The notes below the pieces were generated by a model. It was given only the letters and a program-made list of their open reading frames with translations, did not search any database and was not told the origin of the DNA. A DNA stretch of 64,000 bases, from assembly GCA_012520655.1 (NCBI GenBank), contig JAAYNW010000032.1, positions 25,899 to 89,898 on the forward strand, read 5' to 3'. The DNA is from Clostridiales bacterium. GTDB lineage: Bacteria > Bacillota > Clostridia > Lachnospirales > Lachnospiraceae. A program made the translations under genes and the position numbers. Numbering within the stretch: position 1 is the stretch's first letter; each line of letters starts with the position of its first letter. This document shows, piece by piece, positions 13,347-58,102 of the stretch.

Positions 13347-16300
13347 TTAAAGTGCAGCAATGTCTACCAATGTCAGCTTTTCTTCTTTATTGACATGCTC
13401 CAGACTCGTCACAAGTGCCCTTGCTGTATCCAGCGATGTCAGGCAGTGAACACCTGTTTCAATAGCCGTTCTCCTTATGAGGAAACCGTCTCTGGATTTA
13501 TCCCGTCCCTGTGTGGGCGTATCGATAACGAGGTCTATCTTATGCCCTAAGATAAGATCCATAACAGTAGGTGATTCCTGCTGTATCTTATTTACCTTGC
13601 GGGCATTCACTCCCGCTTCCTTCAGCGCATTCGCCGTACTTCTTGTAGCATATATGGTATATCCGAGCTTCTCAAAGCGTTTTCCTATTTCAATCGCTTC
13701 CCCCTTGTCCGCATCCTTGACCGTAATAATCATCTGCCTGAATTTCGGCAGGTTGATGCCGGCACCGAGGAAGGCTTTATAAAGCGCCTCATTAAATGTT
13801 TTGGAAATACCCAGACATTCTCCCGTAGATTTCATCTCCGGCCCCAGACTAATCTCAGCACCGCGTATTTTCTCAAAAGAGAATACCGGCATCTTAATCG
13901 CCACATATTCTGCTTCTTTCTGCAATCCCGGTTCATAACCGAGCTCGCAAAGCGGCTTTCCCATAATAACTTCTGCTGCCAGATCCACAATAGGAATACC
14001 CGTTACCTTGCTGATATAAGGAACTGTACGGGAAGAACGGGGATTTACCTCGATCACGTACACGTCTTCGCCCACGACTATGAACTGTATGTTAATCAAA
14101 CCGATAACGTGCAGCGCTTTTGCAAGCCTTCTCGTATACTCCGCAATGGTTTCTTTTACTTTTTCGCTGATACTCTGTGCGGGATATACGGAAATACTGT
14201 CGCCGGAATGTACGCCTGCTCTTTCAATATGTTCCATGATTCCCGGAATCAGTATATCGGTACCGTCACATACCGCATCTACTTCGATTTCTTTTCCCTG
14301 CAAATATTTATCTACCAGAATCGGATGATCTTGCGCAATTCGGTTGATAATCTCCATGAATTCTTCCACTTCTTCATCGGAAATAGCAATCTGCATCCCT
14401 TGTCCGCCCAGCACATATGAGGGGCGTACCAGTACGGGGTAGCCTAATTTATTTGCCACCTTCTTCGCCTCTTTTGCTGTATATACCGTTCCGCCCGAAG
14501 GTCTCGGAATATCGCACTCCTCTAAAATCGCATCGAACAATTCCCTGTCTTCCGCCGCGTCCACGTTCTCCGCGCTCGTTCCCAGTATCGGAACTCCCAT
14601 CTTCATAAGGCTCTCCGTCAGCTTGATAGCCGTCTGCCCGCCAAACTGAACAACCGCTCCGTCCGGTTTTTCTATATTTACAACATTCTCCACATCTTCG
14701 GGAGTCAGCGGCTCGAAATAAAGCTTATCCGCAATGTCGAAATCGGTACTTACCGTCTCGGGATTATTATTGATGATAATTGTTTCATATCCGGCCTTTG
14801 AGAATGCCCATGTAGCATGTACGGAACAGTAGTCAAACTCAATTCCCTGTCCGATACGAATGGGACCCGAACCGAGTACAAGTACCTTCTTAGGCGGATT
14901 CGTCTCTACCACTTCGCTCTGGCTGCCGAAGCAGGAATAATAATAGGGCGTGCTTGCCGCAAATTCTGCCGCACAGGTATCCACCATCTTAAAGGCGGCG
15001 GTAATACCGTTGTCATAGCGCATTTTCTTAATGTCCTCTTCCGGTATTCCCGTCAGTCTGCTGATTACATTATCCGGATATTCAATACGCTTTGCTTCTT
15101 TTAATAAGTCCAAAGTGAGAGGACCTTTTTTCAGAGTCGCTTCCATCTCTACCAAAATAGCAATCTTGTCGATAAACCAATGGTCAATCATCGTTATGTC
15201 ATGAATTGTATCATAATCAATACCTTTTCTGATCGCTTCCGCAATCACATAGATCCTCTGGTCATCCACTACTTTCAGCCTATCCAGAAGTTCTTCCTTA
15301 GAAAGTTCCGTAAAATCGTAGCTCATTAGGCAATCCACATGCTGCTCCAGCGAGCGAATCGCTTTCATCAACGCGCCTTCAAAATTTGTACAGATGCTCA
15401 TAACCTCTCCGGTGGCCTTCATCTGCGTGGTCAATGCTCTCTTAGCAGTTATGAATTTGTCAAAAGGAAGGCGCGGAATCTTAACTACGCAGTAATCCAG
15501 CGTAGGTTCAAAGCTCGCATAGGTCTTCCCTGTAATCGCATTCTTTATTTCGTCCAAGGTATAGCCCAGTGCAATCTTTGCAGCCACCTTTGCAATCGGA
15601 TATCCTGTCGCTTTGGAAGCGAGCGCGGAGGAACGGCTTACACGGGGATTCACTTCGATAACACAATATTCGAAGCTCGTAGGATGAAGCGCAAACTGCA
15701 CATTACATCCTCCTGTAATCTCAAGCTCGTTAATAATATTGAGAGCTGAGCTTCGAAGCATCTGATATTCTTTATCCATCAAAGTCTGTGACGGCGCCAC
15801 TACGATACTGTCTCCGGTATGTACACCTACCGGATCGATATTCTCCATATTACATACGGTAATGCAGTTTCCCGCACTGTCGCGCATCACTTCGTATTCT
15901 ATTTCCTTCCATCCCGAAATACAACGCTCTACCAGAACCTGTCCCACACGGGAAAGGCGTAGGCCGTTTTCCAGAATCTCTTCCAGCTCTACCTGATTGT
16001 CGGCAATACCGCCGCCTGAACCTCCGAGCGTGTATGCAGGGCGAAGAACGACGGGGTAACCAATTTTATTTGCAAACTCCACGCCGTCTTTCACATTTTC
16101 CACTACGAGAGAAGCCGCACACGGCTCTCCGATTTTTTCCATTGTTTCCTTGAATTCCAAGCGATCTTCCGCTTTTTTTATCGTCTTTGCGGTGGTACCG
16201 AGAAGTGTCACGCTATTTCTCGCAAGAAAGCCGGATTCGTCCAGCTCCATACCGAGATTTAAGCCCGCCTGCCCTCCGAGCGTAGGTAAAACACTGTCCG

Positions 16301-16547
16301 GTTTTTCTTTTTCAATAATCTGCTCCAGAACCTTAACCGTCAAAGGCTCAATATATATCTTATCCGCTATATCTCTATCCGTCATAATGGTGGCAGGATT
16401 GGAATTTACAAGCACAACTTCGATTCCTTCTTCCTTCAAAGAACGACAAGCCTGTGTTCCCGCATAATCAAACTCCGCCGCCTGTCCGATGACGATAGGC
16501 CCGGAACCAATTACCAATACTTTTTTCACATTAGGATTCTTAGGCAT
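13347..16547 (-). CDS. carB: Carbamoyl-phosphate synthase large subunit
   Basis: GSGPIVIGQAAEFDYAG, duplicated ATP-grasp halves and a C-terminal MGS domain; 1066 aa. Confidence 0.98.
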   Translation of the reverse strand: MPKNPNVKKVLVIGSGPIVIGQAAEFDYAGTQACRSLKEEGIEVVLVNSNPATIMTDRDIADKIYIEPLTVKVLEQIIEKEKPDSVLPTLGGQAGLNLGMELDESGFLARNSVTLLGTTAKTIKKAEDRLEFKETMEKIGEPCAASLVVENVKDGVEFANKIGYPVVLRPAYTLGGSGGGIADNQVELEEILENGLRLSRVGQVLVERCISGWKEIEYEVMRDSAGNCITVCNMENIDPVGVHTGDSIVVAPSQTLMDKEYQMLRSSALNIINELEITGGCNVQFALHPTSFEYCVIEVNPRVSRSSALASKATGYPIAKVAAKIALGYTLDEIKNAITGKTYASFEPTLDYCVVKIPRLPFDKFITAKRALTTQMKATGEVMSICTNFEGALMKAIRSLEQHVDCLMSYDFTELSKEELLDRLKVVDDQRIYVIAEAIRKGIDYDTIHDITMIDHWFIDKIAILVEMEATLKKGPLTLDLLKEAKRIEYPDNVISRLTGIPEEDIKKMRYDNGITAAFKMVDTCAAEFAASTPYYYSCFGSQSEVVETNPPKKVLVLGSGPIRIGQGIEFDYCSVHATWAFSKAGYETIIINNNPETVSTDFDIADKLYFEPLTPEDVENVVNIEKPDGAVVQFGGQTAIKLTESLMKMGVPILGTSAENVDAAEDRELFDAILEECDIPRPSGGTVYTAKEAKKVANKLGYPVLVRPSYVLGGQGMQIAISDEEVEEFMEIINRIAQDHPILVDKYLQGKEIEVDAVCDGTDILIPGIMEHIERAGVHSGDSISVYPAQSISEKVKETIAEYTRRLAKALHVIGLINIQFIVVGEDVYVIEVNPRSSRTVPYISKVTGIPIVDLAAEVIMGKPLCELGYEPGLQKEAEYVAIKMPVFSFEKIRGAEISLGPEMKSTGECLGISKTFNEALYKAFLGAGINLPKFRQMIITVKDADKGEAIEIGKRFEKLGYTIYATRSTANALKEAGVNARKVNKIQQESPTVMDLILGHKIDLVIDTPTQGRDKSRDGFLIRRTAIETGVHCLTSLDTARALVTSLEHVNKEEKLTLVDIAAL

Positions 16548-17760
16548 CTTTTTCCCTCGCTTTCATCATATCAATAAATCTGTCAAACAAATATCCGGAA
16601 TCCTGAGGTCCCGGACATGCTTCCGGATGAAACTGCACGGTGAAAATATTTTTGCCTGTATAAGAAAGACCTTCGTTCGTTCCATCGTTCACATTGATAA
16701 ACGCCGGTGTGGCAATCTTAGAATCCAGTTTTTCCATATCTACAACATAGCCGTGATTCTGAGAAGAAATATAGACTCTGCCGGTCTGCAAATCCTTTAC
16801 CGGATGATTTCCTCCACGGTGTCCGTACTTCATCTTGAAAGTATCGGCACCCGTTGCGAGCGCCATGAGCTGATGGCCTAAACAGATTGCAAAGATAGGA
16901 ATGTCTGTATGATATAACTTCTTTATTTCTTCTATAATAGATGTGCATTCTTTCGGATCTCCCGGTCCGTTGCTTAGCATAATGCCGTCCGGTGCATCCT
17001 CAATGATCTCCTCCGCTTTCGTAAGCGCCGGATACACGATAACATCACATCCTCGCTTAACAAGAGAATCCGCAATGTTATCCTTGGCGCCGAAGTCGAG
17101 AAGCGCTACTTTTTTGCCCGCTCCATTCAATGCTTTTACAAGACCGGGTTTCTTTTCATGTATCCCCTTTTGATATGCTTCTTTATTAAATCTGGCGCTG
17201 CCTGAAATTGCGCCGTTTTCTTCCAAAGACTTAGATCCCTTTATTTCATATTTATGTTCACAGGTTACTTTTTCCACTACTTTTCCCGTAGTGTATTTTT
17301 TTAATCTGGGAATGATTTCATCCAAATCATAGCCATCTCGCGTCGTAATCATACCGTTCATAGTGCCTTTTTCACGCAGAATCTTTGTGAGAGCTCTCGT
17401 ATCGATTCCCGAGATTCCCGGCACCCCGTACTCCTCCAGGAATTCCTGAATTGTCATATCAGAACGGAAATTGCTGGATACTCTCGACAATTCTCGCACA
17501 ATAAATCCATCGGGCCACGGTTTCTTAGATTCCATATCATCTCTGCATACCCCGTAGTTTCCGATAAGCGGATATGTCATACATACAGCTTGTCCTGCAT
17601 AGGACGGATCCGTAAGTACTTCCGGATAACCTGCCATAGACGTATTGAATACAATTTCGCTGATGATTTCTTTTTCGGCACCAATATGGATTCCTTCAAA
17701 AACAGTGCCGTCCTCCAAAATTAAAAATGACTTCATTGGAATTTCGCTCATTTTTTTCAC
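16540..17760 (-). CDS. carA: Carbamoyl-phosphate synthase small subunit
   Basis: LSNGPGDP, AICLGHQL, SQNHGY and QFHPEACPGP. The start could also be a downstream ATG (17751 or 17736). Confidence 0.97.
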   Translation of the reverse strand: MKKMSEIPMKSFLILEDGTVFEGIHIGAEKEIISEIVFNTSMAGYPEVLTDPSYAGQAVCMTYPLIGNYGVCRDDMESKKPWPDGFIVRELSRVSSNFRSDMTIQEFLEEYGVPGISGIDTRALTKILREKGTMNGMITTRDGYDLDEIIPRLKKYTTGKVVEKVTCEHKYEIKGSKSLEENGAISGSARFNKEAYQKGIHEKKPGLVKALNGAGKKVALLDFGAKDNIADSLVKRGCDVIVYPALTKAEEIIEDAPDGIMLSNGPGDPKECTSIIEEIKKLYHTDIPIFAICLGHQLMALATGADTFKMKYGHRGGNHPVKDLQTGRVYISSQNHGYVVDMEKLDSKIATPAFINVNDGTNEGLSYTGKNIFTVQFHPEACPGPQDSGYLFDRFIDMMKAREKDA

Positions 17761-17797
17761 CCGTCGTCCTCTCTCATAATTTTATCCAAATTATCTT

Positions 17798-17826
17798 ATT
17801 TTAGCACAACATCTTGTATGTTTCAA
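17798..17826 (-). promoter_or_regulatory. carAB promoter with an NrdR-box-like operator in the spacer
   Basis: TTGAAA (17821-17826), 17 nt, TG-C-TAAAAT (17798-17803). The plus-strand spacer reads GCACAACATCTTGTATG. Confidence 0.7.
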
Positions 17827-17897
17827 CTATATTTTCACTACAATTGCTCACTGATTGCTTGCAGCCTATACATCACCTTTCCAACATATATAAAACC

Positions 17898-19376
17898 TTA
17901 AAAAATTACCCAATATGCCGTATCATCCTTGATAATCAATTGTTCGGAAGCATCGAAATAATCCCAGTTTTTACCCGCAAAATAAGTATTATAAATTTCC
18001 TCATCCATAGGAACCTTTTCAAAGTTCCTTCCGGTTACTACATTCATCAGCGTATTTGTCACTATTCCGAGAGCTCTTTCATTAATCTGATCGGTTTTAT
18101 AGTGTACTTCATCATAGCTTAATGCACAGTCTACATCATTAACCACTGCCAACTTTGTTATCTGTGTTTTTTCTTCTTCTTCATACTTAAGTATTTTCTC
18201 ATATACCATATTCGCATATAGTTTATCCAGATTATTGCTCAAGGTTCTATTGGCAACAATAACATTGCCGAATATTATCTGTATGAGCAGATATCCGCAC
18301 CCGATATAGCATACGAGCCTTTTAAGCTTTCCTTCCACACATGCGAGCGATACGAGTAAAAGCATACTTTGCACCGCATAAAATGTCCAAATAATTCTAG
18401 GAGGCATATATATACATTGCTGCAGTATCGGAATCACAAAAATCATCACATTCAATCCAAAAAATAAAAGTATAAAATACAAAACCGCCATTTTATCTTT
18501 TTTCTTAACAAAGTGATAAAGCAGCATACTTATGCAAAAAACACTGATTAATAATGGCAGCCCTACGTTCGGAAGCAGTCCTTTACTGTTTTTCAATAAA
18601 GCAATATATACATTTATTATCTCTCCGAGCTTTTCCGATAATATCCCTGTTCCCGCGCTTTTTCTCAACCCTCCGCCTACTCCCGCATAAGCAATCAGAG
18701 TATAGCTTATTATGTTTAATACACCGGCTCCAAAGGTAGAAAGGCAACACACTATTTCCTCTATTACAGTCTTTTGGGTTATCTTATAATCATTATCCAA
18801 AAAGATATATGCCGTCAAAACAATTGCCGCATATACAGCCGCGACTTGATATCCTGTTGTCGACAATAGGATAAAAGCAAATGCTTTGATTCTCTTTTTC
18901 CTGATAAAATAGTAGATTCCGACAGAAGCAAATAAATAAGCCATGCCAAAGACCAGTGCACATTCGGAAAACATTAAATTTTCTCCAAACATCACGTTGA
19001 CAAATAATAACGCAGTAATCGCCGTAAATCCTGCCGTGTGCATAGATGTTTTTGCTTGCATTTTATCAAAAAAACCTTCTTGTACAAAACAAAGACCCAG
19101 GGCAAGCAAAAGAAGTGCTGTTATTACGGTAACGCCTGTATGCGTAGTAGTGGATAATCCCAGTTTTAATAATATGAAATCTATCAAGGATGTCAGATAT
19201 CTTCCATCTTGTATTTGAATTAAAATATCATCTTCAGCAGCCACCATATGTATTAAAGTATCACAGTTAAAGCTTCTTCGGAACAAACCTCCCCACGCTA
19301 CCAGCAATATACTTAGATTTATAAAATATTGATTCATTTTCCCTTGCATTCTCATATACTCTTCCCTTTGTGTCAT
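17898..19376 (-). CDS. Polytopic GT-C glycosyltransferase, GtrII/Glucos_trans_II-like
   Basis: About 10-12 hydrophobic segments, an N-terminal loop with IQDGRYL, YQVAA and PPRI motifs, and a soluble C-terminal domain. Visibly AT-rich. Confidence 0.65.
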   Translation of the reverse strand: MTQREEYMRMQGKMNQYFINLSILLVAWGGLFRRSFNCDTLIHMVAAEDDILIQIQDGRYLTSLIDFILLKLGLSTTTHTGVTVITALLLLALGLCFVQEGFFDKMQAKTSMHTAGFTAITALLFVNVMFGENLMFSECALVFGMAYLFASVGIYYFIRKKRIKAFAFILLSTTGYQVAAVYAAIVLTAYIFLDNDYKITQKTVIEEIVCCLSTFGAGVLNIISYTLIAYAGVGGGLRKSAGTGILSEKLGEIINVYIALLKNSKGLLPNVGLPLLISVFCISMLLYHFVKKKDKMAVLYFILLFFGLNVMIFVIPILQQCIYMPPRIIWTFYAVQSMLLLVSLACVEGKLKRLVCYIGCGYLLIQIIFGNVIVANRTLSNNLDKLYANMVYEKILKYEEEEKTQITKLAVVNDVDCALSYDEVHYKTDQINERALGIVTNTLMNVVTGRNFEKVPMDEEIYNTYFAGKNWDYFDASEQLIIKDDTAYWVIF

Positions 19377-57988: not shown

Positions 57989-58102
57989 ACATAATATCTT
58001 GTAAATCCTGATTACAGAAATTGTAACATCTTACCACTAAAAAGTCAATAAAAAACACAAGATATTATGTTAACATCTCTTCGTTAACACAACATCTTGT
58101 GC
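57989..58102. promoter_or_regulatory. nrdD promoter flanked by three NrdR-box-like sites
   Basis: Minus-strand TTGACT (58043-58048), 17 nt, TACAAT (58020-58025). Boxes at 58055-58070 (ACACAAGATATTATGT) and 58087-58102 (ACACAACATCTTGTGC), 32 bp apart, plus 57989-58002. The pattern matches the NrdR consensus acaCwAtATaTwGtg. Confidence 0.8.

Follow-up and report, generated by a model that had tools for sequence, protein, structure and literature searches.

NrdR is regarded as an essentially ribonucleotide reductase (RNR)-specific repressor, and the locus examined here raises the question of whether it also represses carAB, the carbamoyl-phosphate synthase (CPSase) operon, in a Kineothrix species (Lachnospiraceae). 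The window, a stretch of 64,000 nucleotides that was analyzed as a whole, belongs to an assembly of 2.85 Mb in 97 contigs (G000). A preliminary description of the window had placed an NrdR-type box in the spacer of the carAB promoter and had proposed that NrdR represses carAB through it. The promoter and its box were recovered by promoter scan and sequence inspection at the same coordinates. The proposed repression is weakly supported and probably does not operate here, as the box has no partner and single boxes are not bound by the NrdR proteins studied.

The carAB promoter spacer reads as an NrdR box

Both genes lie on the minus strand and are preceded by a 137-bp intergenic region, with carA (small subunit; NF009475, 549.5 bits) at 16540–17760, starting at GTG 17760 or alternatively ATG 17751, and carB (large subunit; NF003671, 1539 bits) at 13347–16547. 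carA is the sole CPSase small-subunit gene of the genome. The CarA protein has 406 residues here, as compared to approximately 360 to 370 in several congeners and other genera (G007, G010, G012, G026–G029, G033, G035, and G036); the match in those shorter proteins splits at residues about 176 and 212, and this clade's CarA carries an insert of ∼35 residues (about 177–211) between the N-terminal and glutamine-amidotransferase domains. The gene upstream of carA (492 aa; 17898–19376, minus strand) has no NCBIfam match, and its orthologues in relatives match Pfam PF14264 (Glucos_trans_II). In other Kineothrix lineages, the neighbor of carA is purL (FGAM synthase) rather than this gene.

The promoter scan identified a −35 hexamer, TTGAAA, at 17821–17826 and a −10 hexamer, TAAAAT, at 17798–17803 (both minus strand), the former of the same hexamer class as in the carA promoters of the family and the latter with a TG directly in front. 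The arrangement TTGAAA-17-TGcTAAAAT matches the consensus at 10 of 12 positions and is located 38 bp upstream of the carA GTG at 17760. This stretch is a sigma-A promoter in Kineothrix. Its spacer contains a full-length NrdR box, ATACAAGATGTTGTGC (17804–17819, minus strand), which fills 16 of the 17 spacer positions. NrdR boxes are 16 bp long, with conserved C4, A6, A8, T9, T11, and G13 and at least 63% A+T between C4 and G13 (Shahid et al. 2026; PMC13584703). All six conserved positions are present in ATACAAGATGTTGTGC, and six of the eight residues at positions 5 to 12 (AAGATGTT) are A or T (75%, as compared to the required 63% or more). The 13-mer CACAACATCTTGT within the spacer (plus strand, 17805–17817) had been described as shared with nrdD, and it is indeed identical to 58088–58100. 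Read on the minus strand as ACAAGATGTTGTG, it has only two copies in the whole 2.85-Mb assembly, one in the carA spacer and one in nrdD box 1.

A crude consensus score was non-discriminating in this A/T-rich genome and was dropped in favor of matrices made from the nrdD boxes of relatives. The genus matrix comprised 32 distinct nrdD boxes of 28 relatives, and the box set was unchanged when the window's genome and its five nearest relatives were left out. On this matrix the carA box scored 19.5 bits, the fourth best value in the genome; the four sites at or above 19.5 bits were two at nrdD, one inside a 306-codon open reading frame (ORF), and the carA spacer. From the exact score distribution, 0.42 sites per genome are expected by chance at this score, and 0.07 in the intergenic fraction. 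The carA box also shares the genus-specific flavor of nrdD box 1 at the degenerate positions. The likeness of the carA spacer to an NrdR box is genuine and somewhat above chance.

A promoter element accounts for the right half of the box

Within the box, the rightmost TTGTGC doubles as the TRTG/−16 element of the promoter. Box positions 12 to 16 coincide with TGTGC (17804–17808, minus strand), a TRTGn −16/extended −10 element whose TG adjoins the −10 hexamer. TRTGn directly before a −10 is the "−16 region" of Gram-positive promoters; such extended −10, or "−16 region," TRTG promoters were reportedly described in Gram-positive bacteria by Voskuil and Chambliss in 1998. The spacer ends in TRTGn in 15 of 35 carA promoters of other genera, as compared to ∼0.3 expected, and TRTGn is also present in the pyrB promoter of the window's genome and in congeners with an unrelated left half of the spacer, such as GGAAAAAACGTTGTGG. 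The carAB promoter thus resembles Gram-positive TRTG promoters in having TGTGc right before its −10, and the family's carA and pyrB promoters show this element repeatedly, but it accounts for box positions 12 to 16 only and not for the left half. Further explanation is needed only for the left half, ATACAAGAT, together with T11. The left half is spacer sequence inherited within one Kineothrix subclade.

The carA start region resembles pyrBI of Escherichia coli

At the predicted transcription start of carAB, 5 to 6 nt after the −10, the sequence AATTTGG (17786–17792, minus strand) is a candidate site of UTP-sensitive reiterative transcription. The pattern TTGnnn-N16-18-TAnnnT-N5-6-AATTTG is found upstream of carA throughout Kineothrix and in 35 of 109 other genera, as compared to 0.1 in shuffled sequences, and TAtAAT-N5-6-AATTTG(G/A)G is common to the predicted starts of Lachnospiraceae carA promoters (35 of 109 genera; loci L064–L174). 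As in pyrBI-type promoters, the predicted initial transcript of carA has a purine start, a run of at least three T in the DNA, and then G. In E. coli, the pyrBI ITR is AATTTG, where high UTP leads to nonproductive AAUUUUn stuttering, and carAB P1 uses GTTTGC. Like E. coli pyrBI and carAB P1, the carAB promoter serves the pyrimidine pathway, and its predicted +1 falls on AATTTG(G), with an A start and three T followed by G; unlike at E. coli pyrBI, the host is a clostridial Firmicute, the start site is a predicted one, and the stuttering is putative. No PyrR was detected in the genome (best match 31 bits, as compared to a cut-off of 140), and an Rfam scan of 17650–17950 at E up to 10 returned noise only, with neither a PyrR site nor a riboswitch, in agreement with the earlier remark that no PyrR-type attenuator precedes carA. 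No report of such UTP-sensitive control for this group was found among the ten top-ranked literature matches. We infer that the conserved pyrimidine control of carAB probably resides in the AATTTG start region and would proceed by UTP-sensitive reiterative transcription, as at pyrBI.

The pyrB promoter of this genome reads TTGAAA-17(..TTGTGG)-TATCAT-N6-AATTTTAG. The pyrB leader lies outside the window (G000:C34:12928–13237; locus L256), where TTGAAA-17-TATCAT-N6-AATTTTAGGG is followed by a 34-codon leader ORF (MATREHNDCFRFFQMP...) and, after it, a hairpin terminator, AATCGAAGAGAA-TTTTTT-CTCTTCGATTTTG. This arrangement of promoter, leader ORF, and terminator is a pyrBI-like attenuator layout as in E. 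coli.

Genuine NrdR operators are box pairs

The genome encodes an NrdR (TIGR00244, 206.8 bits; G000:C89:76170–76607; beginning MKCPFCGHENTRVIDSR). Its sequence is canonical, with a Zn-ribbon, the DNA-contact residues Asp15 and Arg17, and an ATP-cone. For ribonucleotide reduction, the genome has two nrdD paralogues, both away from carA, and no class I or II reductase. On the minus strand upstream of nrdD, operator box 1, GCACAAGATGTTGTGT (58087–58102), contains the shared 13-mer and leads a two-box arrangement conserved in 28 relatives, and box 2, ACATAATATCTTGTGT (58055–58070), ends 6 bp before the −35 TTGACT (58048–58043). Two boxes are located just upstream of the nrdD −35 in 28 of 30 relatives, 32 bp apart (31 bp in two), and nrdD regions with box pairs of 20 to 40 bits, which served as the positive control, were found in 29 of 30 relatives. 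A two-box scan of the genome returned nrdD1 (39.0 bits) and nrdD2 (25.2 bits) at the top; carA was not among the matches. In this genome and in the genus, bona fide operators invariably comprise two boxes.

Five further pairs of 18 to 24 bits in the two-box scan were judged noise and not regulon members; one precedes mraZ, one is in the parS/soj region, one follows a flagellar gene, one is near xerD, and the fifth is at another place. Two of these pairs, of 22 to 23 bits, are at replication and division genes, though judged noise: one at G000:C89:94027–94073, upstream of mraZ in the cell-division cluster, and one at G000:C63:25624–25671, among parS-like TGTTTCACGTGAAACA repeats upstream of soj/parA. 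At nrdD, a third NrdR-like box, TTACAAGATATTATGT (57989–58004, minus strand), lies downstream of the −10 in this species only, the homologous stretch in the five nearest relatives being TT(T/G)ACATAGAGTTATGT, which no longer scores. The longest nrdD ORF opens at ATG 57931, but five relatives have a TAG stop in place of its second codon, and nrdD therefore most likely starts at ATG 57913–57911 (MFQVIKRDG...).

The NrdR tetramer engages two boxes with a linker of 15 to 16 bp or 26 to 27 bp between them (PMC13584703). Neither the S. coelicolor nor the E. coli protein binds a lone box, in vitro or in vivo (PMC12051234, PMC13584703); isolated E. coli boxes are unbound, and binding is lost with G44C, a substitution of the conserved G13 in box 2 (PMC13584703). 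This two-box rule is based on the NrdRs of E. coli, S. coelicolor, Listeria, and Streptococcus, with no clostridial NrdR among them. The carA box shares with RNR operators (E. coli nrdAB, nrdHIEF, and nrdDG; S. coelicolor nrdAB and nrdRJ; nrdD of this genome) a 16-bp partial palindrome with the same core, and further an A/T-rich stretch from C4 to G13, overlap with promoter elements, and a cognate nrdR in the genome. In contrast, those operators are box pairs with a linker of 15 to 16 bp (rarely 26–27 bp) at RNR genes, whereas carAB has a single box. This situation is reminiscent of topA in Pseudomonas aeruginosa, where one NrdR-like box at a non-RNR gene was put forward as enlarging the NrdR regulon (Crespo et al. 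2015, PMC4409342) and has been called questionable by Rozman Grinberg et al., as NrdR does not bind single boxes (PMC12051234). Both the topA and the carAB boxes are putative, single, and at non-RNR genes; at topA, activation was proposed.

The carA box has no partner in this genome

No second box was found at a permitted spacing around the carA box (offsets of 29–46 bp on both sides, covering 31/32 and 42/43). The best 16-mers at those offsets scored −14.0 and −9.1 bits on the genus matrix and −3.2 and −5.8 bits on the general matrix, with at most four of six core positions, and within ±200 bp of the carA box nothing usable as a partner was found in this genome. The preliminary description had pointed to a half-site beginning 31 bp away and to the likeness of this distance to the period of tandem NrdR boxes. 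A half-site, TCACTACA, is indeed present with its start at 17835, at the stated distance of 31 bp, with C4, A6, and A8, but the tandem architecture does not hold, the half-site being chance-level and absent from sister species. Extended to a candidate second box, TCACTACAATTGCTCA (17835–17850, plus strand), it is a half-site only, with four of six core positions and without the critical G13 (−14.0 bits on the genus and −3.2 bits on the general matrix). With p = 0.025 per position, a match of this quality is expected by chance among eight allowed offsets. It is located in extra intergenic DNA of ∼61 bp, within 17827–17897 between the 492-aa gene and the carA −35, which is missing from sister species, specific to this species, and present in all four metagenome copies of it. 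The 74-bp stretch from the 492-aa gene to the carA −35, which holds these ∼61 bp, was considered as a repeat or mobile element and rejected as such, being single copy in the genome.

A pseudo-box, ATACGGCATATTGGGT (17908–17923, minus strand; five of six core positions, 8.8 bits on the general matrix), is present in the 3′ end of the 492-aa gene (..DTAYWVIF*), where it codes for ..DTAYWV... In the window's species the ∼61-bp stretch separates it from the spacer box, and the distance of 104 bp is not a permitted spacing. In K. alysoides (KNHs209, G025) and in G011-type genomes, the pseudo-box lies exactly 43 bp upstream of the spacer box, equivalent to a permitted 27-bp linker (p ∼1.4e-3 over eight allowed offsets), and the two boxes as a pair score 26.9 and 23.0 bits in K. 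alysoides and G011-type genomes, the value of 26.9 being comparable to nrdD2. The distance is 55 bp in G001, and the gene end is missing in G017 and K. sedimenti (G015); the partner geometry is lost in four of the six closest species. A plausible partner box is present only in K. alysoides-type genomes. Downstream, a UTR element at +32 reads GGATAAAATTTAGAGA in relatives (five of six core positions, −1.4 bits) and is kept also where the box is lacking, but mutations have turned it into GGATAAAATTATGAGA in the window's species (four of six, −5.8 bits). The window's genome is thus the least favorable of its clade for two-box binding.

Within one Kineothrix subclade, the box core is intact in some lineages and broken in others

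Lineages were compared on a carA tree (the closest species and others from public assemblies) and on a concatenated carA+nrdD tree. Conservation of the box upstream of carA orthologs, a further expectation from the preliminary description, is mixed: within a single Kineothrix subclade, six lineages have an intact core and at least four a broken one, and the box is absent from the sampled genus members outside this subclade and from 109 other genera. The preliminary description had named absence from close relatives as a ground for refutation, and both the absences outside the subclade and the breaks inside it go part of the way. The intact lineages are G000, the K. alysoides clade, whose box is the same as that of the window's species, P0027 (ACACAAGATGTTGTGC; 22.5 bits; T2C), P0020 (ATACAATATGTTGTGA; G7T and C16A), P0034 (ATACTATATCTTGTGC; A5T, G7T, and G10C), and G003 (CTACTATATGTTGTGA; changes at positions 1, 5, 7, and 16). 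All changes in these lineages fall on degenerate NrdR positions, a footprint-like pattern, although the lineages were picked by their intact core. The core is broken in the K. sedimenti clade (T11C), P0028 (T9G and G13A), G020 (C4A and T11C), and P0040 (C4T, A6G, and G13A), and no box was found in P0029, P0038, or the sampled Kineothrix members outside the subclade. Over ten lineages, a hand count gave eight differences at the six core positions as compared to 18 at the seven free non-core positions (one-sided binomial ∼0.08). Per position, the differences amounted to ∼2.3 in the discriminator (−10 to start), 1.3 in the core, and 2.6 in non-core positions. These counts would give at most a weak sign of selection on the box core.

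In the six closest species, the sequence from the −35 to the start codon is nearly invariant and that upstream of the −35 is unalignable. The spacer is kept with few changes over carA distances of ∼0.5 substitutions per site, and is the most variable part of the promoter once G020, P0040, P0029, and P0038 are included. Outside the genus, no NrdR pair of at least 15 bits was found upstream of carA in 109 other Lachnospiraceae genera, and single sites of at least 12 bits occurred in 3 of the 109 upstream regions, as compared to 1.1% of shuffled sequences. Among a further 80 Lachnospiraceae loci, pairs of at least 15 bits were found only in three Kineothrix genomes already in the genus set, and at none of the other 77. 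Two scans of metagenome collections, with the promoter and UTR as the pattern and the box as N, found nothing.

Discussion

The account that we favor, with roughly even confidence, is that the carA box is an orphan and not an effective NrdR operator in this genome. That no effective operator is present is deduced from the lack of a partner box at a spacing usable by the NrdR tetramer. The orphan could have arisen by chance resemblance, or could be the remnant of a two-box arrangement surviving only in K. alysoides-type genomes.

A working operator is a possible but doubtful alternative, in which NrdR loaded with dATP/ATP would bind the spacer box and block RNA polymerase, so that an ample dNTP supply lowers carAB as well as nrdD. 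A weak partner would then assist the tetramer's second dimer; candidates are the half-site at −31, the UTR element located at +32, and, through a loop, the pseudo-box 104 bp upstream. The quality and rarity of the box (six of six core positions, 19.5 bits, 0.07 intergenic sites expected, and only two copies of the 13-mer) are consistent with this alternative, as are its position inside the core promoter of a nucleotide-synthesis gene, where a repressor is most effective, and an intact nrdR with its DNA-contact residues. Consensus-compatible substitutions in four diverged lineages (P0027, P0020, P0034, and G003) point the same way, and so does the 27-bp-linker pair of K. alysoides and G011-type genomes, as NrdR accepts linkers of 26 to 27 bp (PMC13584703). 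The two-box rule, moreover, was not established on a clostridial NrdR, and the pseudo-box at 104 bp is roughly in helical phase (∼10 turns). However, all partners are poor here (−3.2, −5.8, and 8.8 bits, the last at the non-permitted 104 bp), and the studied NrdRs do not bind single boxes. At least four related lineages have a broken core, four of the six closest species have lost the partner geometry, and the box does not recur in 109 other genera. Box positions 12 to 15 belong to a promoter element, and AATTTG is an independent, conserved candidate control element at the predicted start site. On physiological grounds, dATP-dependent repression of carAB would also cut the arginine supply, because carA is the only CPSase small-subunit gene. 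No literature linking NrdR to carAB was found.

The spacer might instead be constrained otherwise, by another DNA-binding protein (e.g., an arginine or nucleotide regulator with an A/T-rich palindrome) or by tuning of the promoter through spacer sequence or shape, the likeness to NrdR boxes being coincidental; we regard this as very unlikely. The near-invariance from the −35 to the start codon in the six closest species implies a constraint that is not box-specific, the retention of the spacer at carA distances of ∼0.5 substitutions per site argues in the same direction, and an ArgR-like ORF (identified by eye only) is present at C2:17354–17833. Yet no ARG-box-like or other known motif was seen in the spacer by eye, the invariant and variable positions follow the NrdR consensus rather than another nameable motif, and the spacer becomes the most variable promoter part when G020, P0040, P0029, and P0038 are counted.

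A bolder scenario, which we consider unlikely, is that NrdR was recruited to the sole carbamoyl-phosphate synthase operon in one Kineothrix subclade. It would act through the strong spacer box and a weak box contributed by the end of the upstream coding sequence, a pairing with a 27-bp linker that K. alysoides KNHs209 still has intact, so that dATP would gate pyrimidine (and arginine) synthesis; in the window's species, the ∼61-bp insertion would have parted the boxes, and the strong box may still partly repress alone. A verified carAB target would, if true, be the first direct link of dNTP sensing to de novo pyrimidine supply, and would also test if one high-quality box is enough for NrdR. 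For now, the orphan carA box mainly illustrates that the −16 element of a promoter and a drifting spacer can imitate an operator, and the lesson for prediction of NrdR regulons is to apply the two-box rule. The AATTTG and pyrBI-like by-product of this analysis may matter more than the NrdR question: the family-wide AATTTG at carA, together with a pyrBI-like pyrB leader in PyrR-less Lachnospiraceae, suggests enterobacterial-style, UTP-sensing, repressor-free control in gut Clostridia.
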